From positions 30,059-94,058 of the forward strand of contig CALVKK010000001.1 of assembly GCA_944332645.1 (NCBI GenBank): a stretch of 64,000 nt of DNA. Reading direction: 5' to 3'. The notes below the pieces were generated by a model. That model was not told the DNA's origin. It did no database searches and saw only the letters and a list, made by a program, of their open reading frames with translations. This DNA comes from an uncultured Bacilli bacterium (lineage in GTDB: Bacteria; Bacillota_I; Bacilli_A; RF39; UBA660). The position numbers and the translations under genes are program-made. How positions within the stretch are numbered: the stretch's first letter is position 1; each line of letters opens with the position of its first letter. Shown piece after piece: positions 39,254 to 62,234 of this stretch.

Positions 39254-39269
39254 TATTTATCACTCCTAA

Positions 39270-39790: not shown

Positions 39791-39804
39791 TTATTCCACC
39801 CCTT

Positions 39805-40841: not shown

Positions 40842-40843
40842 TT

Positions 40844-41537: not shown

Positions 41538-41552
41538 CCAGTTACCCCATTT

Positions 41553-43185: not shown

Positions 43186-43495
43186 TACTTTTCTCCTTAC
43201 TATTTTTACTTTCAAAATAATTAATCGTACTTTTTATATATGATAGTGAATTATTTAATTTTTCTATTGCGTAATCGGAATATATCCCTTTATGTTCTAC
43301 ATAAACTTCTAATACTGCTGATATGCCTATTAAACTATCAACTAAATCTTTTAAAAATGCACTATCCCTAGAACCAGTAGAATAATATTCATCATAAATT
43401 TTCATATAATAATGTTCTATTTTGTTAAGTTCTCTATTTAATGAATCTTGAGTATTTTGTCTAAAGAAATCTCTATCTATATTGCTTCCAAACAT
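43178..43495 (-). CDS. Hypothetical phage protein
   Basis: Exact copy of 7013..7330. Confidence 0.5.
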   Translation of the reverse strand: MFGSNIDRDFFRQNTQDSLNRELNKIEHYYMKIYDEYYSTGSRDSAFLKDLVDSLIGISAVLEVYVEHKGIYSDYAIEKLNNSLSYIKSTINYFESKNSKEKSNE

Positions 43496-44196
43496 TCTCT
43501 AAACTCTACCTCCAATTCTTCTCTTTCTTCATCATTATGAAGTTGATTTAAATACCTATTTGCTTCTTCTAATATTTCCATATATTTAACATTATTTTTT
43601 ATAGCATTATTAACCGTATCATATCTTTCTTTGTCTTCCGCTGCTTTTGTATATACTAAATACAAATCACTTAATACTTGATATTTTCTACCTTGAAGAT
43701 AATTAGATAAGTAGGTATCTGTTTTTTTGTTGTTTGAGACATAATTATCTATATATACATCTCTTATTTCTTTATTACTAACACCATTATCATCTAAAAA
43801 ATCTTCTGCTATTTTTGTTAGCATATCTTCTTCTTCACTTTCGGCTGCTTGTATTAATTCATATCCTTTTTCTTTTCTTATGTAATATTTTTCACAAGAA
43901 CATATTAAATCAAATATTGCACCGTTAATTTGTTTCTTTAGAATTTTTATATTGCTTTGATTAATATGATAAGTTATAAAATTATAATTGCTATAATCAT
44001 TATTTTTTATATTAATTTCCAATACAATACTGTTGCTTTGTGTATTAATTTCGTATAGTTGTAACGAAAATATAAAATCTTTATATACAAACAAATTCCA
44101 TTTTTTATTCCAAAGTTCTCTATCTAAATAATTTTTTATTATAAAACTATAATCAATTTCATATTGCTTAATAATTAAGTTATTCATTACGTTCAC
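43477..44196 (-). CDS. Hypothetical phage protein
   Basis: Exact copy of 7312..8031. Confidence 0.55.
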   Translation of the reverse strand: MNVMNNLIIKQYEIDYSFIIKNYLDRELWNKKWNLFVYKDFIFSLQLYEINTQSNSIVLEINIKNNDYSNYNFITYHINQSNIKILKKQINGAIFDLICSCEKYYIRKEKGYELIQAAESEEEDMLTKIAEDFLDDNGVSNKEIRDVYIDNYVSNNKKTDTYLSNYLQGRKYQVLSDLYLVYTKAAEDKERYDTVNNAIKNNVKYMEILEEANRYLNQLHNDEEREELEVEFRECLEAI

Positions 44197-44200
44197 CCTT

Positions 44201-44776
44201 TTAATATTTACTTTCCCAATTTTCTTGATAAATCTTTAACAAGTCATATTTTTCTAGCCAATTCATAAATTTATAAATTTCTTCTTTTAAATCCATTTTT
44301 AATTCTTCACGATAATATTCTTCTTTAAAAATTCGTAATTGTTTTTTATCTTCTTCCCAGTCGTTTACCATATCTTTTTTATCAAAATTATTACAAATTA
44401 CATATTGCATTTTATATGCCTCTGGTACTAATTCCATATAAACTGCTGTTTGATAACTTCCGTAAAATTTACCGACATCATAATTGTTAGTGTGCTTATA
44501 ATCAGTAATAACTCCAGCTTTTAAACAATCAATTTTTCCGTAGACAATGAAATTATCAATATTTTTATATACTTTAACTTGGTAACATCCATTTTTTGTT
44601 TCAGGATAATGAGCAACCATATACTCCTCAAACTCATTACCCTTAACAAATTTACTTTTATCTTCGACTTCTTCTTTTTTTAAAGTTTTAATAAAATCTT
44701 CCAAAGTGCCATATTGATTTTCGACACAATATTTCCAACTATTCAGCAATGTCGGTGTTATTAGATACTTTTTCAT
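44201..44776 (-). CDS. PD-(D/E)XK nuclease
   Basis: Exact copy of 8036..8611. Confidence 0.5.
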   Translation of the reverse strand: MKKYLITPTLLNSWKYCVENQYGTLEDFIKTLKKEEVEDKSKFVKGNEFEEYMVAHYPETKNGCYQVKVYKNIDNFIVYGKIDCLKAGVITDYKHTNNYDVGKFYGSYQTAVYMELVPEAYKMQYVICNNFDKKDMVNDWEEDKKQLRIFKEEYYREELKMDLKEEIYKFMNWLEKYDLLKIYQENWESKY

Positions 44777-45692
44777 ATTCTTTCTTCTCACTATTCCATT
44801 GATAACCTAATTCTGCTACCTTTTCTTTAAATTTGTGTTTCAACTCTTTTTCACTTGTTAAAATATGATTAGTTTCTTTAATTAATTTTGTCATACTTGT
44901 TAAATCTTCTTTGGTTTCCATTTTTTCAATTTGTGGTACTATTTCATTCATTAATTTTTCATATTCTTTCTTTTGTTCTTCAAAGAATACAGCTTCTTTT
45001 TTGATGTTGTTATTAGCTAATTGAAACAATTTTGTTAAAAAGTCATTTGGTTTTGTTCCGTCTAATTCAGGTATTTTCATTACACCTTTAATTCCAAAAC
45101 TTGCTTTAGCAAAATATCTTTCACAATTATCGAATCCGATAGTTTTCTTTTTACCGATAATTTCCATAAAGCCACCAATTTCAACATTTTGCCATACTGT
45201 GTTTTTTGTAGATCCTTCTACTAAAATTCTTAACTTTGTTTGTTCCTCATCTTTTTCTTCAACTGCGTGAAAAACAATAACAATGTTTTTTCTTAAATTG
45301 TAGTAGCAATTATCCATAAATCTTGAAAATTCTCTTGCCACAGCTCCATAACCTTGTAATGATAAACTACCGTCTTTTTTAGCATTTTTAACATCCTGTT
45401 TAATAACATAATTCTTCATTAATTCTAATAATTTTCCACCAGTATCAATTACTAAAGTTTCATAATCACTTAAATCGCCTTTTAAATCTTCGATTAATTC
45501 TTCATAACTATTTGGTTGAATAAAGTCTTTTCTTGCACTAGCCATAACTCTATTGATACCTAAATCTACATCTACCAATAATGGTTTTGGTGCAGATAAA
45601 GCTAAAGTCGTTTTACCTATTCCTGGATACCCAGCTATTAACATTCTTATTTTTTGATTTTCATTAATTAATTCATTTGGTTTTTTTATCAT
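44739..45692 (-). CDS. AAA_24/Sak4-like ATPase
   Basis: Exact copy of 8574..9527. Confidence 0.7.
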   Translation of the reverse strand: MIKKPNELINENQKIRMLIAGYPGIGKTTLALSAPKPLLVDVDLGINRVMASARKDFIQPNSYEELIEDLKGDLSDYETLVIDTGGKLLELMKNYVIKQDVKNAKKDGSLSLQGYGAVAREFSRFMDNCYYNLRKNIVIVFHAVEEKDEEQTKLRILVEGSTKNTVWQNVEIGGFMEIIGKKKTIGFDNCERYFAKASFGIKGVMKIPELDGTKPNDFLTKLFQLANNNIKKEAVFFEEQKKEYEKLMNEIVPQIEKMETKEDLTSMTKLIKETNHILTSEKELKHKFKEKVAELGYQWNSEKKEYEKVSNNTDIAE

Positions 45693-46009
45693 AAATTCAT
45701 TCCTCCTATTTTACTTTTCCATTCCATAATTTTTGTCGTTCTAAACATTTGATTTGCACGATGTTTAGTATTGTTAATTGTTTCTTCTACCTCTTCTCGT
45801 GTTGTACAGATATAAAATCCACCACTAATACCCGATATACTTCCAATCAATTTTGGATACTGCTTGTCCTCTCTGATATTTTGAATGATCTTTCGCATTG
45901 TCTTATCACTATTCACATTGAATATTTGTCGTAAGTCTTTGTTTTTGATTAAATTAGCTTTTCCTAAATGATTTTTACAAAGGTATTCATAAACTAATTT
46001 TTCACGCAT
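45689..46009 (-). CDS. Hypothetical protein, possible winged-helix
   Basis: Exact copy of 9524..9844. Confidence 0.45.
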   Translation of the reverse strand: MREKLVYEYLCKNHLGKANLIKNKDLRQIFNVNSDKTMRKIIQNIREDKQYPKLIGSISGISGGFYICTTREEVEETINNTKHRANQMFRTTKIMEWKSKIGGMNL

Positions 46010-46179
46010 GGTATTAACCTCGCTTTTTTGTGTTTGAATCGCTCTTGTAGTTCTTTTGCTCTTTTAGGTGTAAATACTTTAGCCTCGTTTATATCTCTAA
46101 CAATGTGGTACATTGGAATACTAGGCTTAGCCCACTTTAGATACACTTTTTCGTTTGAAACTTCTATTTCTACAATCAT
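45994..46179 (-). CDS. Small hypothetical phage protein
   Basis: Exact copy of 9829..10014. Confidence 0.4.
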   Translation of the reverse strand: MIVEIEVSNEKVYLKWAKPSIPMYHIVRDINEAKVFTPKRAKELQERFKHKKARLIPCVKN

Positions 46180-46847
46180 TTTTCACCCCTTAATTCTTTT
46201 TCAAAAGCCTCTAATTCTTCATCAGTTAGTAAATCATCATCGACATTTTTATTGAACCAGTCAGGAACTTGTTCTATTGGCTTTTCGTTTTTTAAACGGT
46301 CAAAAATTATTCCTTTGTAATTATTTGCCATGCACTCATCGATTAAGTTAATAATTTTTTCTTCGCCATATTTTTTTGTGTTGTTTTCAATTTGCGTTAG
46401 TAAAGACTTTAATCCTGTTTCAGTATAATGTTCTTTTCGCTCTTTTTTGTACATGAGCCAATCTTCAATCTTTCCCCTTAACAATCCCCTATCTTTTAAA
46501 AACTCTAAATTAGAAACTAAAAACTTAAAACTTAAAACACTTGTTTTGTTTTCTTCCGGTTCCTCATTCGGTTTCTTTCCGGTTTGCTTTCCGGTTTTTC
46601 TTTGGTTTGCCTTTCGGTTTTCTTCCGGTTCATTTTTTTTACTTCTTTTTGAATTGTTTTTTGATAAATTTAACTGTGATTTCAAAGTGTTAAAGACTGC
46701 TTGATTGTGTCCTGTTAATATAGGTTCAATATCTTTAAATACATAATCAGTAATAGCTATTAATAAAATACTTTTATCTTCTATTGGTAATGTATCGATT
46801 AAGTTATAATAGTCATAATAAAATGTAAAACTATTTACTTTATTCAT
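46176..46847 (-). CDS. Putative replication initiator / replisome organiser (contains iterons at 46553..46631)
   Basis: Exact copy of 10011..10682. Confidence 0.5.
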   Translation of the reverse strand: MNKVNSFTFYYDYYNLIDTLPIEDKSILLIAITDYVFKDIEPILTGHNQAVFNTLKSQLNLSKNNSKRSKKNEPEENRKANQRKTGKQTGKKPNEEPEENKTSVLSFKFLVSNLEFLKDRGLLRGKIEDWLMYKKERKEHYTETGLKSLLTQIENNTKKYGEEKIINLIDECMANNYKGIIFDRLKNEKPIEQVPDWFNKNVDDDLLTDEELEAFEKELRGEK

Positions 46848-46850
46848 TCC

Positions 46851-47000
46851 TTAACACCTATCCTTTAGTTCTTTTTTAAAATCGTTTATTATGTCTTCAA
46901 TTTGACATAATCTAATTTTTAAGATATACTTTAGTTGTAAATTTTTATTTACAACTTGATTGGAGCACCCCCGTGACCAATCTTTTTTTTGTACAGTCAT
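46851..47000 (-). CDS. Small hypothetical protein
   Basis: Exact copy of 10686..10835. Confidence 0.35.
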   Translation of the reverse strand: MTVQKKDWSRGCSNQVVNKNLQLKYILKIRLCQIEDIINDFKKELKDRC

Positions 47001-47017
47001 TTTTACATCACCCCTTT

Positions 47018-47251
47018 CTATAAATTCACTAAACAATAATCTCGATCATTATTTCGACTGCATTGTTCTAAAGCATTGTTCTGTAATAAATAGCCTAAAT
47101 AGAACATACCTACTAACAATGCACCAACCACAACCATACCGATTATCATTCTGTGTTCTTTTTTCTTCTTTTCTTTTAAAAATTGTTTTCTCATTTTAAT
47201 TTGATTTTCTTTTAATACTTCGTTTAATGTTTTTCCCTCTTTATTTTTCAT
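47018..47251 (-). CDS. Small membrane protein
   Basis: Exact copy of 10853..11086. Confidence 0.5.
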   Translation of the reverse strand: MKNKEGKTLNEVLKENQIKMRKQFLKEKKKKEHRMIIGMVVVGALLVGMFYLGYLLQNNALEQCSRNNDRDYCLVNL

Positions 47252-47278
47252 ATAGCTTGTCCTTTCTTTTTTAGAAAA

Positions 47279-47395
47279 CTATGAATAATAATTTTCTTGA
47301 ATAAATAATGTTAGATTTTTTATTATTTTTTCTAATCTTTCTTTATTAGGTGGATTAGAACTTTTTATTTTTAATGCAGACTTGTTTTTTTTCAT
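47279..47395 (-). CDS. Possible 38-aa basic peptide
   Basis: Exact copy of 11114..11230. Confidence 0.25.
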   Translation of the reverse strand: MKKNKSALKIKSSNPPNKERLEKIIKNLTLFIQENYYS

Positions 47396-47502
47396 ATTCT
47401 CACCTACTAAATAATATTTTTTTAAGGTTTGTCCTTATTCTTTAAATTATTTTGTTGACTTGCTTTATGTTCTCCTTTACAATGTTTTTGAAAGGAGGAA
47501 TT

Positions 47503-47733
47503 ATGGCAAATCAACATACTGTTCCAAATCCAAATGGTGGTTGGGATGTAAAACGTGAAAACGCTAAACGCGCAACTAAACATTTTGATAATCAAAGCGA
47601 TGCATATAAATATGCTCAATCAATCGCTAAAAATCAAAACAGTGAAGCGCTTTTACACGGTCGTGACGGTAAGATTCGTGCTAGAGAAAGTTACGGAAAC
47701 GACCCAAAACACATTAAGGATACGGAATATTAA
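47503..47733 (+). CDS. DUF2188-family small protein
   Basis: Exact copy of 11338..11568. Confidence 0.65.
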   Translation: MANQHTVPNPNGGWDVKRENAKRATKHFDNQSDAYKYAQSIAKNQNSEALLHGRDGKIRARESYGNDPKHIKDTEY

Positions 47734-47752
47734 TATTTGCAGTTAGTTTTTT

Positions 47753-47920
47753 CTAACTGTTTTTTTCTTTTACTCTAACTATATAAGGTTTAATAATATC
47801 AACATATTCTTGAGTAAATTCAACTATTATTTCTTTAGTTTCTTCATTTTGAATAATTACATATTCTATATTTTTGTTTAAAATATTATTGCATTTTTCT
47901 TCTTTTTGACATTCTTTCAT
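47753..47920 (-). CDS. Possible 55-aa early protein
   Basis: Exact copy of 11588..11755. Confidence 0.35.
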   Translation of the reverse strand: MKECQKEEKCNNILNKNIEYVIIQNEETKEIIVEFTQEYVDIIKPYIVRVKEKNS

Positions 47921-47925
47921 CTTAT

Positions 47926-48171
47926 CTACTCCTGTTCGTTGTTTTTCTGCTTATTCGCATATATTTTTCTAAAAAAAATGTCAAAATCTTCGTTATATAC
48001 TAGCAAAATTTTTTCTAATATATCGATTTGCATAGAAACCTGATTATTCTCATATCTACAAAGTGTATCTTTATTAATACCAGCCTTTTCGGCTACAATT
48101 TCAATAGACATTTTTTCTTTAGCTCTAATAGAACGAAGTTCATCAGCTATTAATTCTCTAGTATTTTTCAA
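47926..48171 (-). CDS. Cro-like XRE-family regulator
   Basis: Exact copy of 11761..12006. Confidence 0.75.
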   Translation of the reverse strand: MKNTRELIADELRSIRAKEKMSIEIVAEKAGINKDTLCRYENNQVSMQIDILEKILLVYNEDFDIFFRKIYANKQKNNEQE

Positions 48172-48304
48172 CTTTATCCCTCCTAACTACCTACATTATA
48201 CTATGCTTATTTGCAGAAGTCAATACTTTTTATGCAAATAAGCATAATTTTTATTGCTTTTTTAAAAAAAATAATATATAATCAATATGAAAGGAGGAAT
48301 TACT

Positions 48305-48943
48305 ATGCCTAATTTCTTTTCTTCAAACCTTAAATTTTTAAGAGAAAAAAAAGGATTATCACAAAATAAGTTGGCTGAAAAGGTAGGTGTAAATCAAACC
48401 ACAATTGCAAGATGGGAAACAGAAGAAATTAAACCATCTATTGACAATGTAGAACAAATTGCTAACGCATTAAATATTGGGCTACCTGAATTACTTATTT
48501 CAGACTTAAGGTTCGATAATGCTGATGTTGTAGACATACCATCAAATACTATAAAAATACCAGTTTTAGGTGTAATTAAGGCCGGAATACCTATAGAAGC
48601 CCAACAAGATATAATAGATTATGTTGAGATACCTAAAGATTGGACTAAAGGCGGTAAAGAATACTACGGACTAAAAATTAGTGGTGATAGTATGTACCCC
48701 AAATATGATAATGATGATATAGTAATTTTCTTAAAAACAAATGAAGTCATAAGTGGTAAGGACTGCGCTGTTATGGTCAATGGATTTGATGCTACATTTA
48801 AAAAGGTATTATTTCAAAATGATAGTATAGTATTGCAGCCATACAATAGCAACTACCAAGTACAAATATTTAATAAAGAACAAATAGAACAATTACCAGT
48901 TAAAATAATCGGAATAGCAAAAGAGAAAAGGACAAAATTATAA
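48305..48943 (+). CDS. CI/LexA-like repressor (HTH + S24 peptidase)
   Basis: Exact copy of 12140..12778. Confidence 0.85.
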   Translation: MPNFFSSNLKFLREKKGLSQNKLAEKVGVNQTTIARWETEEIKPSIDNVEQIANALNIGLPELLISDLRFDNADVVDIPSNTIKIPVLGVIKAGIPIEAQQDIIDYVEIPKDWTKGGKEYYGLKISGDSMYPKYDNDDIVIFLKTNEVISGKDCAVMVNGFDATFKKVLFQNDSIVLQPYNSNYQVQIFNKEQIEQLPVKIIGIAKEKRTKL

Positions 48944-49056
48944 ACATGATGATGAAGCAAATAGATATATTAAATTCCTATTAGAAAATAAAATTGATTA
49001 AAAATACGCTAGTACAGGTATTTTTAAAATAGATGTATGATTGGAGGTGTATTTTT

Positions 49057-49425
49057 ATGATATTTATTTTGGATTTTTTTATTACAATGAGTTGTTATAT
49101 GGTTTATCCTTTGGTAAAATTCGTTGTCTTAAACAAAGATGTGGAATTTACAACAAAAGATGTAAACAAAACCTGTATTATAAATAGTATTGTATGGGCT
49201 ATAATATTCTTAATTATAGGAATTAATATAATTCCAAATTACGAGCCTAACTTTGCACCTGCAATGATATGGTATTGTATTAATTACAGCATTTATTATC
49301 TAAAATATCGCAATGAAGATAATGTAAAAATTTTCGATAATAGAACTAAAAAATTAGCAATTTTAGCACTTGTTTTGGTAATCATTGTTATACTAATATA
49401 TGCATCTATATTTAAAAATATCTAA
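49057..49425 (+). CDS. Multi-pass membrane protein (moron)
   Basis: Exact copy of 12892..13260. Confidence 0.55.
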   Translation: MIFILDFFITMSCYMVYPLVKFVVLNKDVEFTTKDVNKTCIINSIVWAIIFLIIGINIIPNYEPNFAPAMIWYCINYSIYYLKYRNEDNVKIFDNRTKKLAILALVLVIIVILIYASIFKNI

Positions 49426-49571
49426 TTGGCTTAGTAAACATTTTAACACATATATATAGTAGTGTCTCTAATAAGTATTATTATTTCAATATTTAATTAC
49501 AATGATATAATTAGCTTAAAACTTGCTAGTACGGGAGTTTTAAAATAGATGTTAGATAGGAGGTGTATTAA

Positions 49572-50093
49572 GTGAAAAAATTACTAATGATTGGTTTAAC
49601 TATGGTTTTACTTGCTGGAATTACAGGTTGTACAGAAACTGTTTCTCAAGATGAGTCTGGAAACGAAAAAAAAGAATTTACTTTAACAGAAACAGCTATA
49701 GTAAATGATACAAAAATAAAAATAAATTCTGTTACAAAATTAGAAAGAGAATGTTCTTGGGAGTATGACGGAGAATGTCAAAGCTATACAGAGCCTGAAA
49801 ATGATTATTTTTTAGTTATTGATTTAACAATAGAAAATAACGGTTCTGAAGAGTTAAACATATCTTCTATGATGAGTTTTGATTTAAAAGACTCAAACGG
49901 AGAAAGAGGAAAATATGCTTTATTAACTGAAGCTATTTCTAGCCAATTAGATGGCTCCATAATGTCTGGTGATTTATTAAAAGGGCAAATCGCTTATGAT
50001 GTTAAAGATTCAGATACATTTAATTTTTACTATTTAGATAGTCTATTGGATGATCAAATTAAATTTGTTATCAATAAATCTGATATGCAATAA
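49572..50093 (+). CDS. DUF4352-like lipoprotein (moron)
   Basis: Exact copy of 13407..13928. Confidence 0.7.
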   Translation: MKKLLMIGLTMVLLAGITGCTETVSQDESGNEKKEFTLTETAIVNDTKIKINSVTKLERECSWEYDGECQSYTEPENDYFLVIDLTIENNGSEELNISSMMSFDLKDSNGERGKYALLTEAISSQLDGSIMSGDLLKGQIAYDVKDSDTFNFYYLDSLLDDQIKFVINKSDMQ

Positions 50094-50206
50094 AATTGTA
50101 TAAAAAAACTACCGCGGCAACGGTAGCAACGAAAACAAGTCTGCATAATTGTACGTGTTTTCATGTACAATTATAGCATAAAATTTAGTAAAAAGGAAGT
50201 GCTATA

Positions 50207-51724
50207 ATGAAGAATCAGGTTATAAATGAATTTAAAGAATGGCTTAAATCACAAAAATTTAATAATACAATATATGAAAAAATTGCTGGAGCATATATAA
50301 GAATTTCAACTGATAAACAAGATGAATATTCTCCAATTTCGCAATTAAAAGCAATTTGGGAGTATTGTGAAAGAAATAATATGTATTTAAATATTGATTA
50401 TATTTTTATAGAAGATGAGGGAATATCGGGGAAAAACGCACTTAAACGAACTGAATTCCAAAATATGATTGCTACTGCAAAAGCCGATAAAAAACCTTTT
50501 GACACAATTGTTTTATGGAAATTCAGCCGATTTGCTCGTAATCAAGAAGAAAGTATCGTATATAAATCTCTATTAAGAAAGAAACACAATATAAATATTA
50601 TATCAGTTTCTGAACCACTTCCTACAGGTCCATTTGGCGGGCTTATAGAGCGAATTATCGAATGGTTTGATGAATATTACCTTGTAAACCTTTCGGGCGA
50701 AGTAAAGCGTGGAATGACTGAAAAAGCACTAAAGGGAGGACTGCAATCAACTCCAGCTTTTGGATACGATGTTGATAAGCAAAATAACATTCTTGTAGTA
50801 AATGAAAGTGAATCTCAAATTGTAAAATTTATTTATGAAGAATTTACTATTAAAAACAAATCTATGTTAGATATTGCAAAACAATTATATAAAATGAATA
50901 TAAAGACAAAAAAAGGAAAAAGATTTGAAGCAAGAACAATTTATTATATTTTAGCTAATCCTGTTTATATAGGTAAATTAAGATGGACACCAACGGGTAA
51001 AACAAAATGGGATTTCAACAATGAAGAAAGTATAATAGTTAATGGAAAACATGAAGCTATAATTTCAAATGAATTATTTGAAAGAACACAAAATATTTTA
51101 AAAACTAGAATTAGAAAACCATATCAACGAATTGACAGTGAAGTTAATTATTGGTTGCGTGGTATTATAAGATGTAAAGAATGTGGTCATACATTAATAA
51201 AACACAATAGAAAGAAATTAAGATGTAATGGATACAATCACGGACAATGTTCTAATCAAACTACATTAGTAATGAGCGAAGTTGAAAATTTAGTTATACA
51301 ACAAATAAAAAGAGATTTTAGTACTGGAATAATAAGTAATATTGTGGAAAAATCAAAAACCGAAAAAAAGGTAGACACAAAGTCAATAATTTTAAATCAA
51401 ATTAAAATGAATGAATTAAAACTAAATAGAGCTAAAGAAGCTTACCAAAGTGGAGTTGACAGTTTAGAGGAATATAAAGAAAATAAAATAAAAATAGAAA
51501 AAGAACAACAATATTTAAAATCACAGCTAAATGAATTTTCGAATAATAACGAAAGTAATTTAGACGATCATAAAAAAGAAATAATTGAAAATGGAAAAAA
51601 AGTTTACGAAATTCTATTAAATGAAAACATCTCAATAAGAGAAAAAAATGACATACTACATCAACTAATTAATAAAATAGAATTTAACGAAAACACTTAT
51701 GAATTAACGATTTTTTACAATTAG
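50207..51724 (+). CDS. Large serine recombinase (integrase)
   Basis: Exact copy of 14042..15559. This copy abuts host DNA. Confidence 0.9.
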   Translation: MKNQVINEFKEWLKSQKFNNTIYEKIAGAYIRISTDKQDEYSPISQLKAIWEYCERNNMYLNIDYIFIEDEGISGKNALKRTEFQNMIATAKADKKPFDTIVLWKFSRFARNQEESIVYKSLLRKKHNINIISVSEPLPTGPFGGLIERIIEWFDEYYLVNLSGEVKRGMTEKALKGGLQSTPAFGYDVDKQNNILVVNESESQIVKFIYEEFTIKNKSMLDIAKQLYKMNIKTKKGKRFEARTIYYILANPVYIGKLRWTPTGKTKWDFNNEESIIVNGKHEAIISNELFERTQNILKTRIRKPYQRIDSEVNYWLRGIIRCKECGHTLIKHNRKKLRCNGYNHGQCSNQTTLVMSEVENLVIQQIKRDFSTGIISNIVEKSKTEKKVDTKSIILNQIKMNELKLNRAKEAYQSGVDSLEEYKENKIKIEKEQQYLKSQLNEFSNNNESNLDDHKKEIIENGKKVYEILLNENISIREKNDILHQLINKIEFNENTYELTIFYN

Positions 51725-51763
51725 TCTCTTTTGAAGTATGGTGGACCCGATTCAGAACTAGGA
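51724..51763. other. attR hybrid site (phage left arm + host cotJC right arm)
   Basis: Identical to attP through 51747 (GTCTCTTTTGAAGTATGGTGGACC), then diverges into the cotJC reading frame. The right inverted arm of attP is absent. Confidence 0.7.
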
Positions 51764-52213
51764 GCATCTTTAAGATACTTAAATCAAAGATATACTATGC
51801 CAGATGAAAGAGGATTTGCCCTTTTAACTGACATAGGAACGGAGGAAATGGCACATTGGGAAATGATAGCCACTATGATTCAACAATTAATGAAAAATTC
51901 AACCATAGAGGAATTAAAAGAACATGGATTAAATGGTTATTACACACAACATGACCATGCTAACTTTCCCGTTGATGCAAGTGGTGTACCATTCACGACA
52001 GCTTACATTGAGTCAACTGGGGATTACTGGGCTGATTTAGAAAGTGATATGGCCGCGGAACAAAGAGCACGCGTAACTTATGAAAAGCTAATTAATCAAA
52101 CTAAAGATCCTGATGTTATAGCTCCTCTTACTTTTTTAAGGCAAAGAGAAATAGTTCATTACAATCGTTTTAAAGAACTAAGAGATTATTATTTAAACAA
52201 ATATAAAAACTAA
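51731..52213 (+). pseudogene. cotJC: 3' portion of a cotJC-like spore-coat / Mn-catalase-family gene, split by prophage insertion
   Basis: YGGPDSELGASLRYLNQRYTMPD...LLTDIGTEEMAHWEMIA...AAEQRARVTYE...FLRQREIVHYNRF matches my memory of B. subtilis CotJC from about residue 28 on. The N-terminal roughly 30 codons are absent. The first codons (TTG AAG TAT GGT GGA CC) lie in sequence shared with attP. Confidence 0.8.
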
Positions 52214-52222
52214 GGTATTAAT

Positions 52223-53143
52223 ATGAAAAAAGTATTATTAATATATGGTGGATCCTCACCAGAACATAATATTTCTTGCGAATCTGCTAAATGTATAATA
52301 GAAAATATTGATAAAAATAAATACTTAATCGATTGTGTTTATATAACACAAAATAACATATGGCTATATCAAAACAAGCCAATAACAAATATAATTAATT
52401 ATTTGAAAAATTTTGACGTTGTTTTTCCAATTACCCACGGAACTAACGGCGAAGATGGAAGATTACAAGGCATGTTAGATTTATTTAATATCAAATACAT
52501 AGGTTCAAAATGTGGAACTAGTTATATTTGTATGGACAAAGAGAGAACTAAACAAATTTTAAACTATTATAAAATTCCCCAAGTCCCTTTTCAAATTTAT
52601 AATAAAAAAGAAAAAGTCATTATTCCTTTTCCAGTTATAGTTAAACCAGCATGTAGTGGATCATCCATAGGAATTGGAATTGCTAAGAATAACAAGCAAC
52701 TAAAAGATGCTATTAAAAATGCTCTAAAATATGACCAAAAAATAATTATTGAAAAATTTATCGATGCTCAAGAGTTAGAATGTGCTATTTTAGAGGACAA
52801 AAAATTAATTATTTCAGACGTAGGAGAAATAATTATTAATAATGATTTTTATGATTATGAAACAAAATATCAAAATAACAAAGCAAAAATAAAAACAGAA
52901 GCAAATATTCCAAAAACAGTAAAAAAACAAATAAAAGAATATGCTAAAAATGTATTTAATATTTTAAATATCAAAGGTTTAGCACGAATAGACTTTTTGT
53001 ACGACAAAAACACTAAAAAACTTTACTTAAATGAAATTAATACTTTACCAGGTTTTACAACTATGAGTATGTACCCAAAATTAATAATGAATAAGGGTTT
53101 AAGTTACGAAAATATAATCACTAAATTAATTGAAAATGCTTAA
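52223..53143 (+). CDS. ddl: D-alanine--D-alanine ligase
   Basis: LLIYGGSSPEHNISCESA N-terminus and an ATP-grasp body. 306 aa. Confidence 0.85.
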   Translation: MKKVLLIYGGSSPEHNISCESAKCIIENIDKNKYLIDCVYITQNNIWLYQNKPITNIINYLKNFDVVFPITHGTNGEDGRLQGMLDLFNIKYIGSKCGTSYICMDKERTKQILNYYKIPQVPFQIYNKKEKVIIPFPVIVKPACSGSSIGIGIAKNNKQLKDAIKNALKYDQKIIIEKFIDAQELECAILEDKKLIISDVGEIIINNDFYDYETKYQNNKAKIKTEANIPKTVKKQIKEYAKNVFNILNIKGLARIDFLYDKNTKKLYLNEINTLPGFTTMSMYPKLIMNKGLSYENIITKLIENA

Positions 53144-53176
53144 AAATCTTAACAATATATATTCTATTTTAAAAAA

Positions 53177-53207
53177 GTAGCATGTTTTTAAAACATGCTA
53201 CTTTTTT
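53177..53207. terminator. Bidirectional intrinsic terminator between ddl and the convergent gene
   Basis: The GTAGCATGTTT/AAACATGCTAC stem is flanked by A6 and T6. Confidence 0.75.
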
Positions 53208-53242
53208 AAAAAGACTATTGAAAAAATCAATTTGCCAATAGC

Positions 53243-54301
53243 CTATATCTCTTTATTATTTCTATTTTTTTCTTTTTTAAAGTATGCTGTTTCAATGTCA
53301 TAGTATGGATTTAATTTTTTTAACAACTTGACATTTCCTTTTTTCTTAAATTCATTTCGTCTTTCAAATAATTCCCCAAAATAAACATCATTATTATAAA
53401 TTAAAAAGAAATTGATGACTTCTGCGAAAAACTTTATATCTTCTGAATACTTTTTATATAAAAATTCAAAATTAACATCACCTACTTCAAAGGCTTTTAT
53501 AAGGGAATTATAATTGCTTTGCATATATTTTTTGTCAAGACTATAATATAGAACTAAATTTTCATATACATTAGAAAATATATAACTATAAAATTTTTTT
53601 ATTTTTTCTTTGTTACCTTTATATTTATGAATGATTTGTTGATTAATTGTGGCTCTTAAATATTCCGTTACATTCTTATAAAAAATTGAATTTCCTTTTT
53701 CATCTGTCTTAATAATATAGTCTGAACTTCGATAAATATCAATAAAATCTTGAATTAATCTTTCAGTTACTAGCATTGATTCAGTATCAACATAGTTGGC
53801 ATAATTTAAAACCTCAAGCGGATTAATTTTCATAATCTTATCCAACTTATTGTTACCTAAAACTAATTCTTGACACTTATTAATAAATAAATCGCCATTA
53901 TCAACAAACTCGACATAATCACTAATATAATCAAAGACATGGATGTTATCTTCCCAATTTAGATATTCATTTATAATATCTTGATAATTTTTCTTTTCTA
54001 GTTCATCAATATGTTCATAATAATATTCTTCCTCGATTTTGTTATCAATATTATATAAAGCAAAATAATATGAACCGCTTGTGATAATAAGCATCATCAA
54101 TTTTTTATATAATGATTTGTTTTCTGTTAAATCAATATAAGCTACCTCTGATAGCAAATTATCATATTTGCTATTTTCGTCTGTTAAAAAACGTAAAACT
54201 TCAGCACCATAAGTCATCGAATCAGAATCACTGTCAAGCATATTTAAAAGAAGTCCTAAGGACTCGACGCACGCGCCATAAAGTGTATTAATTTTCTCCA
54301 T
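53243..54301 (-). CDS. Hypothetical protein (no recognisable domain)
   Basis: 352-aa ORF. Confidence 0.55.
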   Translation of the reverse strand: MEKINTLYGACVESLGLLLNMLDSDSDSMTYGAEVLRFLTDENSKYDNLLSEVAYIDLTENKSLYKKLMMLIITSGSYYFALYNIDNKIEEEYYYEHIDELEKKNYQDIINEYLNWEDNIHVFDYISDYVEFVDNGDLFINKCQELVLGNNKLDKIMKINPLEVLNYANYVDTESMLVTERLIQDFIDIYRSSDYIIKTDEKGNSIFYKNVTEYLRATINQQIIHKYKGNKEKIKKFYSYIFSNVYENLVLYYSLDKKYMQSNYNSLIKAFEVGDVNFEFLYKKYSEDIKFFAEVINFFLIYNNDVYFGELFERRNEFKKKGNVKLLKKLNPYYDIETAYFKKEKNRNNKEI

Positions 54302-54316
54302 CCCCCTAAAAACCTC

Positions 54317-54748
54317 CTACTTAAGTATATTATTTAGAATATAGTTAAAACTAATTTTGATATCAGGAAAAACTTCAATCTCATCTAATTGTTCGTAAGA
54401 AAACCAATCATATCGATCAATTTCTTCATCTTCAATAACATCATCCTGGCTTAAAGGTATTCCAACATATGTAATGTCAATGTGTAACGATCCATCCTTA
54501 CCTCTATTCCTTTGAATGCCCAAAGGTCTAATAAAATCATCTTCACGAGGAAATCTTTCGCCAATCAACTTAACTCTAACTCCTGTTTCTTCATATGTTT
54601 CTCTTAAAGCTGTTTCTTCTGGTGTTTCATTTTTTTCTATATGTCCCCCTGGCTGAACCCAACAATTAAATTTTCGATGATGGCATAGTAAAATTTTATA
54701 ATTATTAGGATCTACTACAAAAACAGAAGCGCAAAATTCTTTGTTCAT
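54317..54748 (-). CDS. NUDIX hydrolase
   Basis: Nudix box GGHIEKNETPEETALRETYEETGV. Start taken at MNKEF (the ORF extends to 54787). Confidence 0.8.
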   Translation of the reverse strand: MNKEFCASVFVVDPNNYKILLCHHRKFNCWVQPGGHIEKNETPEETALRETYEETGVRVKLIGERFPREDDFIRPLGIQRNRGKDGSLHIDITYVGIPLSQDDVIEDEEIDRYDWFSYEQLDEIEVFPDIKISFNYILNNILK

Positions 54749-54904
54749 TAAAACACATCCCATAAATATTATAACATATTTTACCAAAGTTTAAAAATTT
54801 TATTTAGATTCTTCGCAACACCTATATGCTAACACAAATTATTGTGTTAGATAATATATTTAAGCTTATTTATGATATTTTTATTATGAAAATGGAGGTA
54901 GTAT

Positions 54905-55114
54905 ATGTATTTTAAAAGATTGAAAGATTTGCGTGTAGATAACGATTATTTACAAAAAGATATAGCTAAATTTCTAGGAATTACTCAACAATATTATTCA
55001 AAATATGAATTAGGTCAATATACAATCCCACTAGAATTTGTGATTAAATTATCTAAATTTTACAATGTTAGTGTTGATTACATAGTTGGTTTAACTGATG
55101 ACAAAAAAAAATAA
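54905..55114 (+). CDS. XRE-family HTH transcriptional regulator
   Basis: 69 aa with an HTH_3 pattern (LQKDIAKFLGITQQYYSKYELG). Confidence 0.75.
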   Translation: MYFKRLKDLRVDNDYLQKDIAKFLGITQQYYSKYELGQYTIPLEFVIKLSKFYNVSVDYIVGLTDDKKK

Positions 55115-55135
55115 AACACGTAAATAACGTGTTTT
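55103..55135. terminator. Bidirectional terminator between the XRE gene and mbl
   Basis: The AAAACACG/CGTGTTTT stem has an A-tract upstream. Confidence 0.6.
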
Positions 55136-56123
55136 ATTTATCAATTAAATGGATATTATCCAATAAAATTCCGGTTCCCTCTACAACACATGTAAGAGGA
55201 CTTTCAGCAATAAAAACAGGAACTTTCAATTCATGAGATAAAAGTTGATCAAATCCATCAATTAAAGCACCACCACCAGTAATTACAATACCTTTATCGA
55301 TAATATCAGCGGCTAATTCTGGAGGAGTTTGTTCTAAAACATTTTTTGCTTTATTGATTATTATATATACACTTTCTCGTAATGCTTCTTCTACTTCATC
55401 TGAACACAAAGTAATAGTATGAGGTAACCCTGTCACCAGATCACGACCTCTAACCTCCATTTTGTCTTTTTTATTTCCACTATAAACTGTTCCAATGCTT
55501 ATTTTAATTTCCTCTGCTGTACGATCACCAATCAAAAGTTTATACTTATCCTTAATGTATTTCATAATATCAGCATCGAAAATATTACCAGCAATTTTTA
55601 TAGATGAACTGGTAACTATTCCTCCTAATGATAAAATTGCAATATCCGTGGTTCCACCACCAATATCAATTACCATATTACCACTTGGTTTAGAAATATC
55701 CATCCCTGCACCCACTGCAGCCACTTTAGGTTCTTCTTCAATAAATACTTTTTTTGCACCAGTCCTTTCCGCAGCTTCCTTAATCGCATTTTTTTCAACT
55801 TGCGTTATATTAGAAGGACAACAGATTAAAATTCTAGGACGTGACAAAAAACTCTTTCCATTTATTTTGCGGATAAAATGATTTAACATTACTTCGGTAA
55901 TTTCAAAATCGGCAATTACTCCATCTTTCATCGGTCTAATTGCTATAACCGAACCAGGAGTACGTCCTAACATTTCTCTTGCTTCACTACCAACGGCTAA
56001 AGGTTTTTTTGTTTCAGCGTCAATCGCTACAACACTAGGCTCATTTAATACTATTCCTTGTCCTTTAACATAAATTAATACATTAGCCGTTCCCAAATCG
56101 ATTCCGATATCTTTTGCAAACAT
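55134..56123 (-). CDS. mbl: MreB-family rod-shape protein, Mbl-like
   Basis: Close match along its whole length to my memory of B. subtilis Mbl (MFAxDIGIDLGTANVLI...). spoIIID is adjacent, as in Bacillus. Confidence 0.85.
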   Translation of the reverse strand: MFAKDIGIDLGTANVLIYVKGQGIVLNEPSVVAIDAETKKPLAVGSEAREMLGRTPGSVIAIRPMKDGVIADFEITEVMLNHFIRKINGKSFLSRPRILICCPSNITQVEKNAIKEAAERTGAKKVFIEEEPKVAAVGAGMDISKPSGNMVIDIGGGTTDIAILSLGGIVTSSSIKIAGNIFDADIMKYIKDKYKLLIGDRTAEEIKISIGTVYSGNKKDKMEVRGRDLVTGLPHTITLCSDEVEEALRESVYIIINKAKNVLEQTPPELAADIIDKGIVITGGGALIDGFDQLLSHELKVPVFIAESPLTCVVEGTGILLDNIHLIDK

Positions 56124-56178
56124 TTTATCACTCTCATTCCTTTAAATATTATACCATATCTTTTACCATTTTTTTACA

Positions 56179-56433
56179 TTAACTATTTAAATTTAAATAC
56201 TTTCTTTTGGTCGATTCTCCTCCTCTTATATGCCTTACATCAGTGTGAAATTTAAGAATTTTTTCGACCTTTAAAAAAATATCATAATCTATGTCATTTA
56301 ATCGCTCATGCAAATCTTTATGAACAGTACTTTTACTAACGTTAAAAACTTTAGCAATCTCTCTTACTGTTCTGTTAGTTTTAATAATGTATTTAGATTC
56401 TTCCAACACTCTTTTTACGATGCTTTTATTCAT
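56179..56433 (-). CDS. spoIIID: Stage III sporulation transcription factor SpoIIID
   Basis: TVREIAKVFNVSKSTVHKDLHERL...HIRGGESTKRKY matches SpoIIID. Confidence 0.85.
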   Translation of the reverse strand: MNKSIVKRVLEESKYIIKTNRTVREIAKVFNVSKSTVHKDLHERLNDIDYDIFLKVEKILKFHTDVRHIRGGESTKRKYLNLNS

Positions 56434-56500
56434 ATAACACCTCTTAATTAAATATATCTTTCAAATTGATAAATATACCTAAAAAAGAGTATTAAAACTC

Positions 56501-57127
56501 TTATAAATCATTCAATTGTTTATCATAATAATTTTCTGGATTTACATTAACACCATTATGAATTAGTTCAAAGTGTAGATGATTACCTAAATCCTTAGAA
56601 ATATTAGCCTCTCCGCTTTTACCAATTACTTGTCCTTGCAACACAGAATCCCCCTCATTTACTAGCACCTCTCCTAAACTTTGATAGACACTTACCAGAT
56701 TATCTGCATGAGTAATTTCTACTATCTTACCCAATAAATTATTTTCCATAACTTTAGTAACTTGTCCATCTAAAACAGAAACAACATCAAATGCTTCTTT
56801 ACCTTGATAATCTATTCCACTATTTGGAATATAAGTATTCTCGTAATAGATCAATGAATCTTTTTGCTCGTCTTCTGTTCCTTTATAGTCATAAAAATGT
56901 CTTACAATAACTATTTCATCTTCTAAATAAGGTCTAGTTATAATATTTTTTGCATTTACAACTGGCAATTCTTCCTCAATTATAACATCATTTACATAAG
57001 TTGAATTATCTTGAAGTTTAGATTGTGATGAAATCGATTCAAGTAAATACACTGTTCCAATTACAGTGACAAATGATAAAGCATAAAATACATAAACAAC
57101 AGCTTTTTTTAATCTACGTTTTTTCAT
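56501..57127 (-). CDS. M23/LytM-domain membrane protein, SpoIIQ-like by position
   Basis: N-terminal TM, then an M23 domain (HADNLVSVY...GNHLHFEL). Lies between spoIID and spoIIID. Confidence 0.6.
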   Translation of the reverse strand: MKKRRLKKAVVYVFYALSFVTVIGTVYLLESISSQSKLQDNSTYVNDVIIEEELPVVNAKNIITRPYLEDEIVIVRHFYDYKGTEDEQKDSLIYYENTYIPNSGIDYQGKEAFDVVSVLDGQVTKVMENNLLGKIVEITHADNLVSVYQSLGEVLVNEGDSVLQGQVIGKSGEANISKDLGNHLHFELIHNGVNVNPENYYDKQLNDL

Positions 57128-57178
57128 ATTTCACCTCTATATTAAGTTTGAGCAAATATGAAAATTTTATACATTTTT

Positions 57179-58090
57179 TTAAATTTTTTTTATTGTTGTA
57201 CCTTGATAATAATACTTTAATATTTCATCATATTTATAACCTTTTAACGCCATAGCTTGAGCTCCATATTGACTCATTCCAACGCCATGACCATAACCTT
57301 TAGTAGTTATATATACATTTTGATCGTCTTGTCGAATTGTAAAATAATTAGATTTTAGATTTAGTTTATTAACCACTGTATTCCCATCAAAAAAAACATC
57401 ATTAATTTTAATTTTTTTTGTTCTTCCTGTACTAGTAGTTTCAATCGTTTCCAACTTAATTGTCGGTTGATATGATATACCTAACTTACTATAAAAATCC
57501 TCAAGACTAAAAGTATAATTTACTTCATAAACTGGTGAAATTTCATCCCATGTTGAACTCACACTTTGTAAATAAGGCAATTTGTTTGTAAATACCTCTT
57601 CACTATTTTCTGTATATCCAACACTAGTTGAAAAAAACATAGCATCGATTACTTCACCATCATATTCTAAATATTCGTTATGTGTTTCTAAAACTGCTTT
57701 CTTAATTTTGTTGATATTATCAATATAATCATCTTTCCACACACTCTTTAAATATTCATCATCTAAATACACTTGATTCATTACTGTATCAACTACATCA
57801 TATTCTTTATTTTTGTTATATTCCATTTTTTTCATAACATAACTGCGAGCAGCTACTGCTTGTGCCTTCAAAGCTTCAATATTAAAAGATATTGGCATTT
57901 CACCAGCCAAGACACCAACTATATATTCTTCAAAAGGTACTTTAATAATTTCATCAGTTTCTTCTTGTTTAACACGAACAACCATATTAGATGTATATTT
58001 AAATTTAATTTCATTATCTTTTATAAAAAAATTGACAACTAAATATGGTATCAATATAATTAAACAAGTTAAAAGCAGTATTCTTTTCAT
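57179..58090 (-). CDS. spoIID: Stage II sporulation protein D (lytic transglycosylase)
   Basis: SpoIID domain with EALKAQAVAARSY and GYGHGVGMSQYGA. Confidence 0.85.
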   Translation of the reverse strand: MKRILLLTCLIILIPYLVVNFFIKDNEIKFKYTSNMVVRVKQEETDEIIKVPFEEYIVGVLAGEMPISFNIEALKAQAVAARSYVMKKMEYNKNKEYDVVDTVMNQVYLDDEYLKSVWKDDYIDNINKIKKAVLETHNEYLEYDGEVIDAMFFSTSVGYTENSEEVFTNKLPYLQSVSSTWDEISPVYEVNYTFSLEDFYSKLGISYQPTIKLETIETTSTGRTKKIKINDVFFDGNTVVNKLNLKSNYFTIRQDDQNVYITTKGYGHGVGMSQYGAQAMALKGYKYDEILKYYYQGTTIKKI

Positions 58091-58126
58091 AATATCATCC
58101 CCAATATTAAAATACTGCTATCTATA

Positions 58127-58333
58127 CTAAATTATACGCGTTGTCATAAAAAAATCATAAAAAAAGTTAACGACTAAATACGACAAACTCATTGCTAAAA
58201 ACACAAATAAAATTCTGGCTTGATAATAACGATTTTTCTTAAACACATTTTGAATATTTATACTGTCTAAAGCAAGAAGAGAAAAAGGAAACACAATCAA
58301 ATACAAAATTGTTTTAATTGTCATAGTTATCAA
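58127..58333 (-). CDS. Small membrane protein
   Basis: 68-aa ORF with two TM segments. Confidence 0.4.
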   Translation of the reverse strand: MITMTIKTILYLIVFPFSLLALDSINIQNVFKKNRYYQARILFVFLAMSLSYLVVNFFYDFFMTTRII

Positions 58334-58742
58334 TCATTTCTACTCGTCTTTTGTGTTTTTCTTCATTTGAAAAATTTGTAGTTAAAAAAGCTTTTATAAT
58401 TTCCTTATAATTTTGTGTTTTCTCTCCTAATGCTATAACATTAATATTATTATGACTTCTAGCTAATATTGCTTCTTCTAATTCATTAATTTTAGCACAT
58501 CTTATTCCACGAACTTTATTACATGCAATACTCATTCCAATTCCTGTACCACAAATCAAAATACCTCGATCTATTTTTTTATCTTTGATTGCTTCACCAA
58601 TTTTATAAGCATATTGTGGATAATCGACACTTTCAATCGAATTGGTTCCATAATCGATTACTTGGTAATCAGCATTTAAATATTTTTTTATTTTTTCTTT
58701 TAAAATCACGCCACGGTGATCACTTGCTATTCCTATTTTCAT
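58314..58742 (-). CDS. rpiB: Ribose-5-phosphate isomerase B
   Basis: MKIGIASDHRG...LICGTGIGMSIACNK signature. Confidence 0.85.
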   Translation of the reverse strand: MKIGIASDHRGVILKEKIKKYLNADYQVIDYGTNSIESVDYPQYAYKIGEAIKDKKIDRGILICGTGIGMSIACNKVRGIRCAKINELEEAILARSHNNINVIALGEKTQNYKEIIKAFLTTNFSNEEKHKRRVEMIDNYDN

Positions 58743-58890
58743 TCTATCACCTCTTCAAATTTATAATTTAAATTACTTTAGTGACAACTGGTAACAATTT
58801 GTCACAGTTTTATTTTCAAAATTATCTCCTTTCTAATATCTATATTTTAATTATAACACGATAATGCAATTAAAAAGAAAAAAACTGCAA

Positions 58891-59106
58891 TTAAGCAGTT
58901 TTATCTTGATTAAGTCCATACTTGCGATTGAATTTTTCAACACGTCCAGTTTTTGTAGCAGTTCCTTGTTTTCCAGTAAAGAATGGATGACACTTATCGC
59001 AAACCTCTAGGTGCACTTCTTTTTTATTAGAGTTTACTGTAAAACTATTGCCACAAGCACAAGTAACTTTCGTTTCCATATATTCTGGATGAATTCCCTT
59101 TTTCAT
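58891..59106 (-). CDS. rpmE: 50S ribosomal protein L31
   Basis: MKKGIHPEY...CxC...[10 protein letters not shown]. Start trimmed from the ORF-track start. Confidence 0.9.
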
Positions 59107-59213
59107 AATTATATCTCCTTCCGCCATGACAAAATTAAGTCATAGAAATTTAATGCTCCTATATTATAACAAATATAAATAATAAAAAGCAAGTATTTTT
59201 TATAATTTCTTCT

Positions 59214-59927: not shown

Positions 59928-59983
59928 ATTTCCCCCTAAAAAAAGTAGATTATTCTACTTAATTATATTATATATTAACCAAA

Positions 59984-61237: not shown

Positions 61238-61277
61238 AAACATCCTCCACTACTATATTTGTATGTATTTTTCTCAT

Positions 61278-62129: not shown

Positions 62130-62234
62130 TCTATCACCAATTTAATTATATATATTTTTTATTATAAAATCAATAATTTTAATATTATGTATGTCAAAAA
62201 TGTGTTATATTATACGGACAGAAAGGAGATATTT

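Follow-up and report, generated by a model that had tools for sequence, protein, structure and literature searches.

Results

A cotJC fragment adjoining a serine recombinase gene

The stretch analyzed here, a window of 64,000 nucleotides on contig CALVKK010000001.1 of an uncultured Bacilli bacterium (source sample ENA SAMEA6814369, reads ERR4096558), carries a prophage that splits the spore coat gene cotJC. At the junction of phage and host DNA, the gene of the phage integrase, a large serine recombinase (LSR), is followed by the 3′ part of cotJC, and the attachment site attR spans the transition. The features of this junction are as follows (aa, amino acids).

50207 to 51724, plus strand: LSR gene (505 aa), copy B, assigned by its Pfam domains, with a TAG stop at 51722 to 51724
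51721 to 51768, plus strand: attR, with the left arm TCTCTTTTGAAG and the core TATGGTGGACC (51737 to 51747), then cotJC
51737 to 52213, plus strand: cotJC 3′ fragment, codons 29 to 186 and the stop, matching PF05067 and 94% identical to the 186-aa protein P0001

The integrase contains a Resolvase domain (PF00239, E=1.1e-22, residues 29–178), a Recombinase domain (PF07508, E=2e-23), and a Zn_ribbon_recom domain (PF13408, E=2.4e-8). The catalytic motif YIRISTDKQ is visible in its translation, in agreement with a resolvase domain that uses a serine nucleophile. A preliminary description of this DNA had proposed a prophage with a large serine recombinase, and the three LSR domains as well as the phage modules described below bear this out.

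Downstream of the integrase gene, an open reading frame (ORF) of 160 codons (51731–52213) opens at a TTG in the phage arm, seven bases past the integrase TAG. Its product is identical to protein P0139 and matches the Mn_catalase family (PF05067, E=5.8e-42) at profile positions 29–189 only. Homology to CotJC begins at Tyr29 (51737), 12 nt beyond the integrase stop, and runs to the end of the protein. The missing part comprises 28 codons, M1–Q28, which correspond to MWKYEKKLEYPINITRKDLNLAKSMMAQ in the nearest relative. The preliminary description had placed the start of the CotJC/Mn-catalase match at about residue 28 and the loss at roughly 30 N-terminal codons, and both estimates agree with the alignment. 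Thousands of CotJC-type proteins of 186–195 aa, the best with 94% identity, were retrieved from a collection of 5.8 billion proteins; the fragment is 75–94% identical to proteins of 186–190 aa, one of which is named spore coat protein JC by JGI.

Because the integrase stop and the TTG are spaced 9 nt apart, the two lie in the same reading frame, as previously stated. Translation might thus start at the TTG (51731), or reach the fragment from the integrase gene in the same frame through coupling or read-through, and the shortened CotJC encoded by the truncated ORF would then be functional. Such a product would agree with the position of the 160-codon ORF, with the 160-aa calls made by gene callers on many contigs, and with the in-frame TTG or ATG in the arm of several related elements. 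However, no Shine-Dalgarno sequence precedes the TTG, and its recurrence is sufficiently explained by its place in TTTTG, the conserved arm to which the recombinase binds. Moreover, other elements carry an in-frame stop at the TTG position (for example, L038), and the fragment is separated from the cotJB-linked promoter. The 160-codon ORF reported in the preliminary description is therefore present, but translation of an N-truncated CotJC from it is unlikely, given the lack of a ribosome-binding site and the location of the TTG in the arm; a functional truncated gene appears very improbable to us.

Uninterrupted loci were found by exact look-up of the closest full-length CotJC proteins. Their gene order is cotJB, cotJC (186 aa), ddl, a 356-aa ORF, NUDIX, helix-turn-helix (HTH), mreB/mbl, spoIIID, M23 peptidase, spoIID, rpiB, rpmE, GDSL, murA, and fba, and the gene order of the window from 52223 on is the same. 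Judged from this synteny and the intact 186-aa gene in relatives, the locus is a split cotJC; the naturally short gene that the preliminary description had raised as an alternative is ruled out.

Attachment sites and position of the crossover

Self-comparison of the window revealed a repeat offset of 36165, and positions 1–15582 are 100% identical, base for base, to 36166–51747. This agrees with the attP-identical sequence previously noted after the integrase stop. The window accordingly reads as a partial phage copy, an attP junction, a full copy of 36,165 bp, attR, and host DNA, which amounts to at least 1.43 tandem copies. The junction between the copies is as follows.

15554 to 15603, plus strand: attP junction between the tandem copies, TCTCTTTTG-N9-GG-N9-CAAAAGAGA, with a dyad about the GG at 15578–15579

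The window attR reads ...TCTCTTTTGAAG TATGGTGGACC CGATTCAGAA..., and the window attP reads ...TCTCTTTTGAAG TATGGTGGACC TTATCTCAAAAGAGAC...; their identity stops after 51747. The intact gene of the nearest relative (L003, compared as attB) reads ...ATGATGGCCCAA TATGGTGGACC TGATTCTGAA..., and attB is also written as ..CA[AG]TATGGTGGACCCGATTC. All four sites, attB, attP, attL, and attR, hold TATGGTGGACC, which is consistent with one single crossover. The window attP fits the dyad of the integrase family, CTCTTTTG-N9-GG-N9-CAAAAGAG, and has the properties of a serine-integrase attP, as it is short, is imperfectly dyad-symmetric, and gives hybrid attL and attR sites. The same arm design is observed in approximately 60 attL and approximately 50 attR junctions of related elements, with CTGTTTTTG-N9-GG-N9-CAAAAACAG as the conserved arms. 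In the family attL, cotJC...CAG TAYGGNGGNCC is followed by nnAnTGCAAAAACAGATAAT; in the family attR, TTATCTGTTTTTGAnn is followed by TnnGGNGGNCC GAYGG....

Locus L082 holds an attL, an internal attP, and an attR, and the bases left of the central GG follow the left partner. From this triplet and the center of the dyad, we infer that the crossover occurs at the GG of the Gly31 codon (51743–51744), that is, at its first two bases. These bases are fixed, as any change loses the invariant glycine. The insertion falls between cotJC codons 28 and 32.

The attL of the window phage lies outside the window, and a scan for the lysin-side arm recovered five public gut metagenome contigs (L087–L091) of a phage 88–96% identical to the window phage. 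Three of the five represent attL, in which cotJB and cotJC codons 1–32 are joined at TATGGTGGACC to the lysin-side arm, forming a 58-aa fusion ORF. The other two (L090/L091) represent the attP form, one from a 38.7-kb contig with 110x coverage. The attP/attL pattern was found in metagenome contigs and not in IMG/VR. The cotJC 5′ end that had been predicted at the far attL is therefore present for a closely related phage.

An assembly artefact, in which the phage–cotJC junction or the tandem would be a chimeric join, was also considered. Assembling two copies that are identical throughout and spaced 36 kb apart is difficult. Furthermore, two short-read scaffolds from the same sample (ENA ERZ28614592), both 100% identical to the window, end exactly at the att core, and one of them starts with 55 nt common to attP; such ends mark a point at which the assembly graph branches three ways. 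In contrast, the attR junction recurs in independent assemblies and samples (L001, L010, L094–L099), and attL and attP are found in others. An artefact is thus conceivable for the tandem arrangement only, by a walk through the attP loop, and hardly credible as an explanation overall. The tandem may be a real polylysogen or such an assembler path, and attP-junction molecules were required in the sample either way. Similar tandems with 100% identical copies and an internal attP are seen for mini-elements in L082, L083, L052, and L062.

An integrase family dedicated to cotJC

A scan of one genome per GTDB species yielded 77 loci with relatives of the integrase (34–98% identity). Their hosts are gut Bacilli represented by metagenome-assembled genomes (MAGs), Lachnospiraceae (Lacrimispora, Hungatella, Enterocloster, Blautia, and Roseburia), Oscillospiraceae/Ruminococcaceae, and others. 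In 70 of the 77 loci, tblastn with CotJC detected a fragment of the gene no more than about 250 nt away from the integrase stop. Two more loci cut by contig ends (L025 and L076) were added on inspection, so that at least 72 of 77 have an adjoining cotJC fragment, and only two loci with sufficient downstream sequence show none. In a Lacrimispora MAG contig (L044, about 7450–7500), the integrase gene is followed by a site of the attP type that has two element-like arms and lacks cotJC sequence, which suggests an excised or tandem form.

Every junction lies at the same codons, with the gene split at Tyr29-Gly-Gly-Pro. Two geometries are observed. In the first, that of the window, the integrase gene is co-directional with cotJC and adjoins its 3′ part; in the second, it converges on the 5′ part. 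The elements range from 2.5-kb mini-elements up to phages, and those with the two gene halves in a single locus measure 2.5–6.9 kb. Besides the integrase, the smallest encode a PdaC/DUF3298 protein and small ORFs. In a Bacilli MAG from rabbit gut (L011), a remnant of 4.9 kb that retains stubs of LysM and S24 looks like a decayed phage of the window type. Where two or three LSR elements interrupt the gene, all of its pieces remain in frame.

Additional observations concern a related phage and further sites in the gene. Bajarodcaudo virus 3 (L092, PQ006094.1), a 32-kb circular phage from woodrat faeces, encodes an integrase with 40% identity and carries an attP of the same design, reversed and downstream of the gene (2960–3030); this attP predicts integration into cotJC. 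A second insertion site in cotJC lies at about codon 65 (G-T-E-E / x-A-H) and is seen in L020, L013, L029, L047, L053, L059, L062, L064, L078, L081, L083, and L084. In L020 (494–3720), this site is filled by a separate 2.8-kb element with its own LSR of 525 aa (2007–3584), and the gene lies in three pieces. A third site at about codons 124–136 is seen in L037, L022, L032, and L041. In L037, a 539-aa serine recombinase of a 5.4-kb element (7818–13218) adjoins the 3′ piece, and the cargo is a TctABC tricarboxylate transporter.

Signs of reversibility in relatives, and a candidate directionality factor

In silico joining at the GG restored an intact CotJC of 190–217 aa in eight relatives. Between element-bearing Lacrimispora genomes, the rebuilt cotJC has a ratio of nonsynonymous to synonymous substitution (dN/dS) of approximately 0.02 at dS values of 0.17–0.57. 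The integrase ratio is 0.05–0.14, with values involving L082, artefacts of a wrong frame start, left out, and integrase dS rises with cotJC dS. A permanently dead gene would not stay so conserved, provided that the elements were present while the genomes diverged.

An all-against-all comparison of element ORFs revealed one small protein of about 50 aa common to 18 of 20 elements, and a search with a hidden Markov model (HMM) detected about 47 loci. Its consensus is M-x-K-x-P-x-I-E-N-Y-I-E-I-(D/N)-G-x-x-V-x-M-D-S-L-P-E-E-K-R-K-E-I-...-Q-D-x-M-M-E-x-x-G-Y-x-R, and it has no family in Pfam or PHROGs. The ORF and the integrase gene are on opposite strands in all cases, and the ORF is usually found directly upstream of the integrase (for example, L075 5713–5958, minus strand). 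Its start is preceded by AACAaGTACAA-N9-CATACAtTTTACC-aGGAAGGgg. More than 40 loci carry GTACAA-N8-11-CATA in this position, whereas chance would give about 0.7 matches per 64 kb. A CATA-type −10 element is a hallmark of sigmaE and sigmaK promoters, and GTACAA resembles SpoIIID boxes. The SpoIIID consensus of Clostridioides difficile is KRTAACARK (PMC5025042). Based on these features, the small protein is a candidate recombination directionality factor with a putative mother-cell-type promoter. The arrangement of a recombinase with a small factor is proven in the C. difficile skin element skinCd (CD1231/CD1234) and in SPbeta (SprA/SprB), and the ORF and promoter motif of the mini-elements parallel it by consensus match.

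The prophage

The prophage features were assigned by PHROG and Pfam matches and by gene calls on an identical scaffold.

1 to 15578, no strand: partial upstream prophage copy, 100% identical to 36166–51743, with the second integrase copy at 14042–15559
15579 to 51744, no strand: complete prophage unit from attP to attR, defined by the repeat offset, PHROG and Pfam matches, and gene calls
15633 to 16442, minus strand: endolysin with CHAP and LysM domains (gene calls)
16456 to 16641, minus strand: holin (gene calls)
47926 to 48171, minus strand: Cro-like HTH protein (PHROG/Pfam)
48287 to 48943: CI/LexA-like S24 repressor with the S24 self-cleavage domain (PHROG/Pfam)

Other products matched in PHROG or Pfam are tail proteins, a major head protein, a portal, a large terminase, a Sak4-like annealing protein, and a DUF4352 lipoprotein. 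The packaging, head, tail, lysis, and lysogeny modules are all present, as in a temperate tailed phage (Caudoviricetes), and the prophage looks complete and SOS-inducible from its gene content. A megablast search with 11.7 kb of the phage gave no match among 50,697 deposited phages, and a protein search with the integrase found a sole full-length relative, at 40% identity; the integrase protein has no exact entry in the contig index. Between the tail genes lies an ORF of 1526 aa (20407–24987, minus strand), which matches the nuclease-toxin-like domain PBECR3 (PF18812) on the identical scaffold and has no PHROG match.

The host flank

The host-flank genes were assigned by gene calls on a scaffold 100% identical to 51693–63143; L001 is 100% identical to the window.

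52223 to 58090, no strand: host flank, syntenic with the uninterrupted loci
52223 to 53143, plus strand: ddl
between ddl and mreB/mbl: a 352-aa ORF, NUDIX, and HTH
55134 to 56123, minus strand: mreB/mbl
56179 to 56433, minus strand: spoIIID
56501 to 57127, minus strand: M23 peptidase
57179 to 58090, minus strand: spoIID (SpoID family)

The sporulation genes reported previously in this flank are thus recovered as SpoIIID, the M23 peptidase, and SpoIID. No clear lineage-specific mother-cell promoter that could serve as a template was found in the regions upstream of the host spoIID and spoIIID.

On the other side of the gene, in a region outside the window, CotJB (PF12652) is encoded directly upstream of cotJC in the intact loci L004–L006 and in the attL contig L089. 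A sigmaE-like sequence, ATAAA-N14-CATACA, matches the consensus upstream of cotJB in L089 (200–282), L004 (7240–7327), and L011 (2990–3054) and would fit mother-cell expression of the phage-interrupted cotJ operon. A tyrosine-integrase element with a Zot-like gene lies directly upstream of cotJB in relatives with an intact cotJC (L004 6061–6975, L005 3212–4126), and the cotJ neighborhood thus draws further mobile elements.

Discussion

Relation to known sporulation-gene interruptions

The interruption of cotJC in the window is real and belongs to an established kind, which includes skin in sigK, SPbeta in spsM, vfbin, vrin, gin in gerE, and yin in yabG (PMC4191935, PMC5025042, PMC5595907, PMC10747680). 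As in those cases, the element lies inside the coding sequence of a mother-cell sporulation gene and carries its own recombinase at one junction, the integrase stop being located 12 nt from the core. Precise excision is reproduced in silico by the eight rejoined relatives, and both attB and attP forms are found in metagenomes for the phage group.

The closest parallel to the window phage is SPbeta in spsM of Bacillus subtilis (SprA integrase, SprB factor), likewise an active, inducible LSR phage in a mother-cell sporulation gene, whose precise excision rebuilds the gene (PMC4191935, PMC5499854). SPbeta differs in target, integrase lineage, and att sites and is larger (134 kb versus 36 kb). In addition, the sporulation promoter of SprB has been shown experimentally, whereas neither a directionality factor nor such a promoter was found in the window phage. 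Skin elements in sigK (SpoIVCA in B. subtilis; CD1231/CD1234 in C. difficile) resemble the cotJC elements in that sizes vary and only the recombinase is common; in C. difficile, a small factor controlled by sigmaE and SpoIIID gives cell-type specificity (PMC5025042; bioRxiv 10.1101/2022.02.25.481979). However, skin splits a regulator, so that an entire regulon is gated by it, and CotJC is a coat protein with a structural or enzymatic role; moreover, skin elements are defective, whereas the window element looks like a complete phage. The gin element in gerE of Bacillus cereus ATCC 10987, a minimal non-phage recombinase with a small partner gene (PMC5595907), resembles the 2.5–3 kb cotJC mini-elements rather than the window phage. 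Its proteins and its target differ from those of the mini-elements. Outside sporulation, the Listeria phages A118 and phi10403S in comK also split a host gene by a serine integrase and act as a reversible switch ("active lysogeny"), with intracellular growth as the trigger. The A118 integrase is only about 25% identical to the window integrase.

Previous reports mention cotJC in passing. It is listed as a phage-like-interrupted gene by Abe et al. 2013, as cited in bioRxiv 10.1101/2021.11.22.469490, and a skin-like element in cotJC of Laceyella sacchari is mentioned in bioRxiv 10.1101/2022.02.25.481979. As far as these mentions go, the earlier interruptions resemble the window in having phage-like or skin-like elements with SpoIVCA-like recombinases. 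In the literature searched, in which Abe et al. 2013 is represented by the citing preprint, there is no description of the cotJC site, a dedicated integrase clade, multiple sites, a candidate factor, or a cotJC excision experiment. C. difficile phi027/CDR20291_1465 was considered as a further split cotJC and rejected, because the prophage there merely lies next to a CotJC-like gene and does not split it.

Proposed mechanism and its weighing

We propose the following explanation. The phage is integrated inside cotJC, with 51721–51768 as its attR. The LSR would join the dyad-symmetric attP, located just past its own stop codon, with an attB of about 40 bp in cotJC whose center is the GG of Gly31, an invariant codon (Q-Y-G-G-P-D). 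The lysogen has a cut cotJC, with codons 1–28 at attL and codons 29–186 at attR, and cannot make full-length CotJC because the gene is cut and its 3′ part has no promoter or start of its own. Recombination of attL with attR by the integrase would restore the frame exactly, and a directionality factor would probably be needed, as expected for this enzyme family. The integrase clade is dedicated to one site and includes both active phages and mini-elements of 2.5–7 kb long kept in cotJC. The window phage would represent the active-phage stage of this lineage and behave as SPbeta does in spsM. Its excision would follow SOS induction via the LexA-like repressor and would probably also take place in the terminally differentiating mother cell, where cotJC would be rebuilt while the spore genome keeps the prophage. 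For this explanation as a whole, the SPbeta-like behavior of the phage included, we regard the arguments for and against as evenly balanced.

Several observations weigh against a sporulation switch in the window phage. The preliminary description had suggested a search of the phage for sigmaE- or sigmaK-dependent promoters or a directionality factor, and this search yielded neither. Two HMM rounds (--max, E<=50) returned noise only and no homologue of the 50-aa ORF in the window; GTACAA-N8-11-CATA, AC-N17-CATACANT, and ATA-N16-CATACANT gave 0 matches in the window versus 0.5–0.7 expected, and a looser sigmaE-like scan of the phage gave 6 matches versus 6.7 expected. The integrase region of the window phage is 97.6% identical to that of the lysogen L010, versus 85.3% for the host flanks. 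Moreover, in the protein collection, truncated 160-aa alleles (MKYGGPD...) occur beside commoner intact 186-aa alleles in at least three host lineages. This mobility and the polymorphic alleles point to an infectious phage that repeatedly integrates at the cotJC site and not to a resident element. For the relatives, the selection test covers distant elements (34–37% integrase identity) and assumes that they were in place throughout the divergence, and the promoter assignment is a consensus match. In addition, the attL of the window genome itself is outside the window. The cotJC fragment in the window is intact, and the insertion looks recent by the same identity values, so that purifying selection has little room to show.

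These observations could also be read in terms of a passive safe harbour. According to this reading, cotJC would serve as a conserved Q-Y-G-G-P-D target that is dispensable in vegetative cells, knocked out in lysogens and restored on induction or loss, with no control of sporulation. An intact phage with SOS-type regulation that moves between diverged hosts would be expected, as would a polymorphic prophage with an intact 186-aa gene on most contigs, and the window phage yielded no sporulation promoter or directionality-factor homologue. Furthermore, C. difficile tolerates the loss of CotJC paralogues with little coat defect (PMC11222575). However, a safe harbour leaves unexplained the integrase-only elements of 2.5–3 kb with intact integrases, the dN/dS of the split cotJC, and the genes split by two or three LSR elements with all pieces in frame. 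We consider this reading, the main rival, quite possible, if somewhat doubtful.

The developmental switch suggested in the preliminary description is therefore strongly favored at the level of the integrase family, by the shared site, the mini-elements, the dN/dS values, and the small ORF with its promoter motif, but not for the window phage, which has neither the small ORF nor the motif nor an excess of promoter-like matches. Excision of the window phage in the mother cell as well is plausible, and we lean only slightly against it. A broader picture is offered more tentatively, as possible but distinctly doubtful. In this picture, an uncharacterized LSR clade specific for the Gly31 GG would comprise active gut phages (the window phage, that of the L091 contig, and Bajarodcaudo virus 3) and domesticated mini-elements of 2.5–7 kb in Lachnospiraceae, Oscillospiraceae, Paenibacillaceae-labelled MAGs, and gut Bacilli; two more lineages would target codons of about 65 and 130; cotJC, a developmental gene interrupted at several sites, would be rebuilt in the mother cell by the 50-aa factor expressed from a sigmaE/K-type promoter; and the window phage would be a still infectious, SPbeta-like member.

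Implications

Developmental excision has been shown experimentally for a few genes only, namely sigK, spsM, spoVFB, spoVR, gerE, and yabG. With one crossover site, a conserved attP design, a dedicated clade in common human-gut spore-formers, and a candidate directionality factor with a candidate promoter, cotJC, so far a name in lists, becomes a testable system, and mini-elements are carried by the cultured strains Lacrimispora amygdalina DSM 12857, L. xylanisolvens DSM 3808, Hungatella hathewayi DSM 13479, and Clostridium sp. Marseille-P2415. If the proposed explanation is not true, the window would hold an ordinary prophage in a dispensable gene. If it is true, a path from infectious phage to domesticated switch would lie inside one integrase lineage, which would also supply orthogonal serine integrases whose att sites are known. 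It would also bear on how lysogeny affects the properties of the spore coat in gut bacteria.

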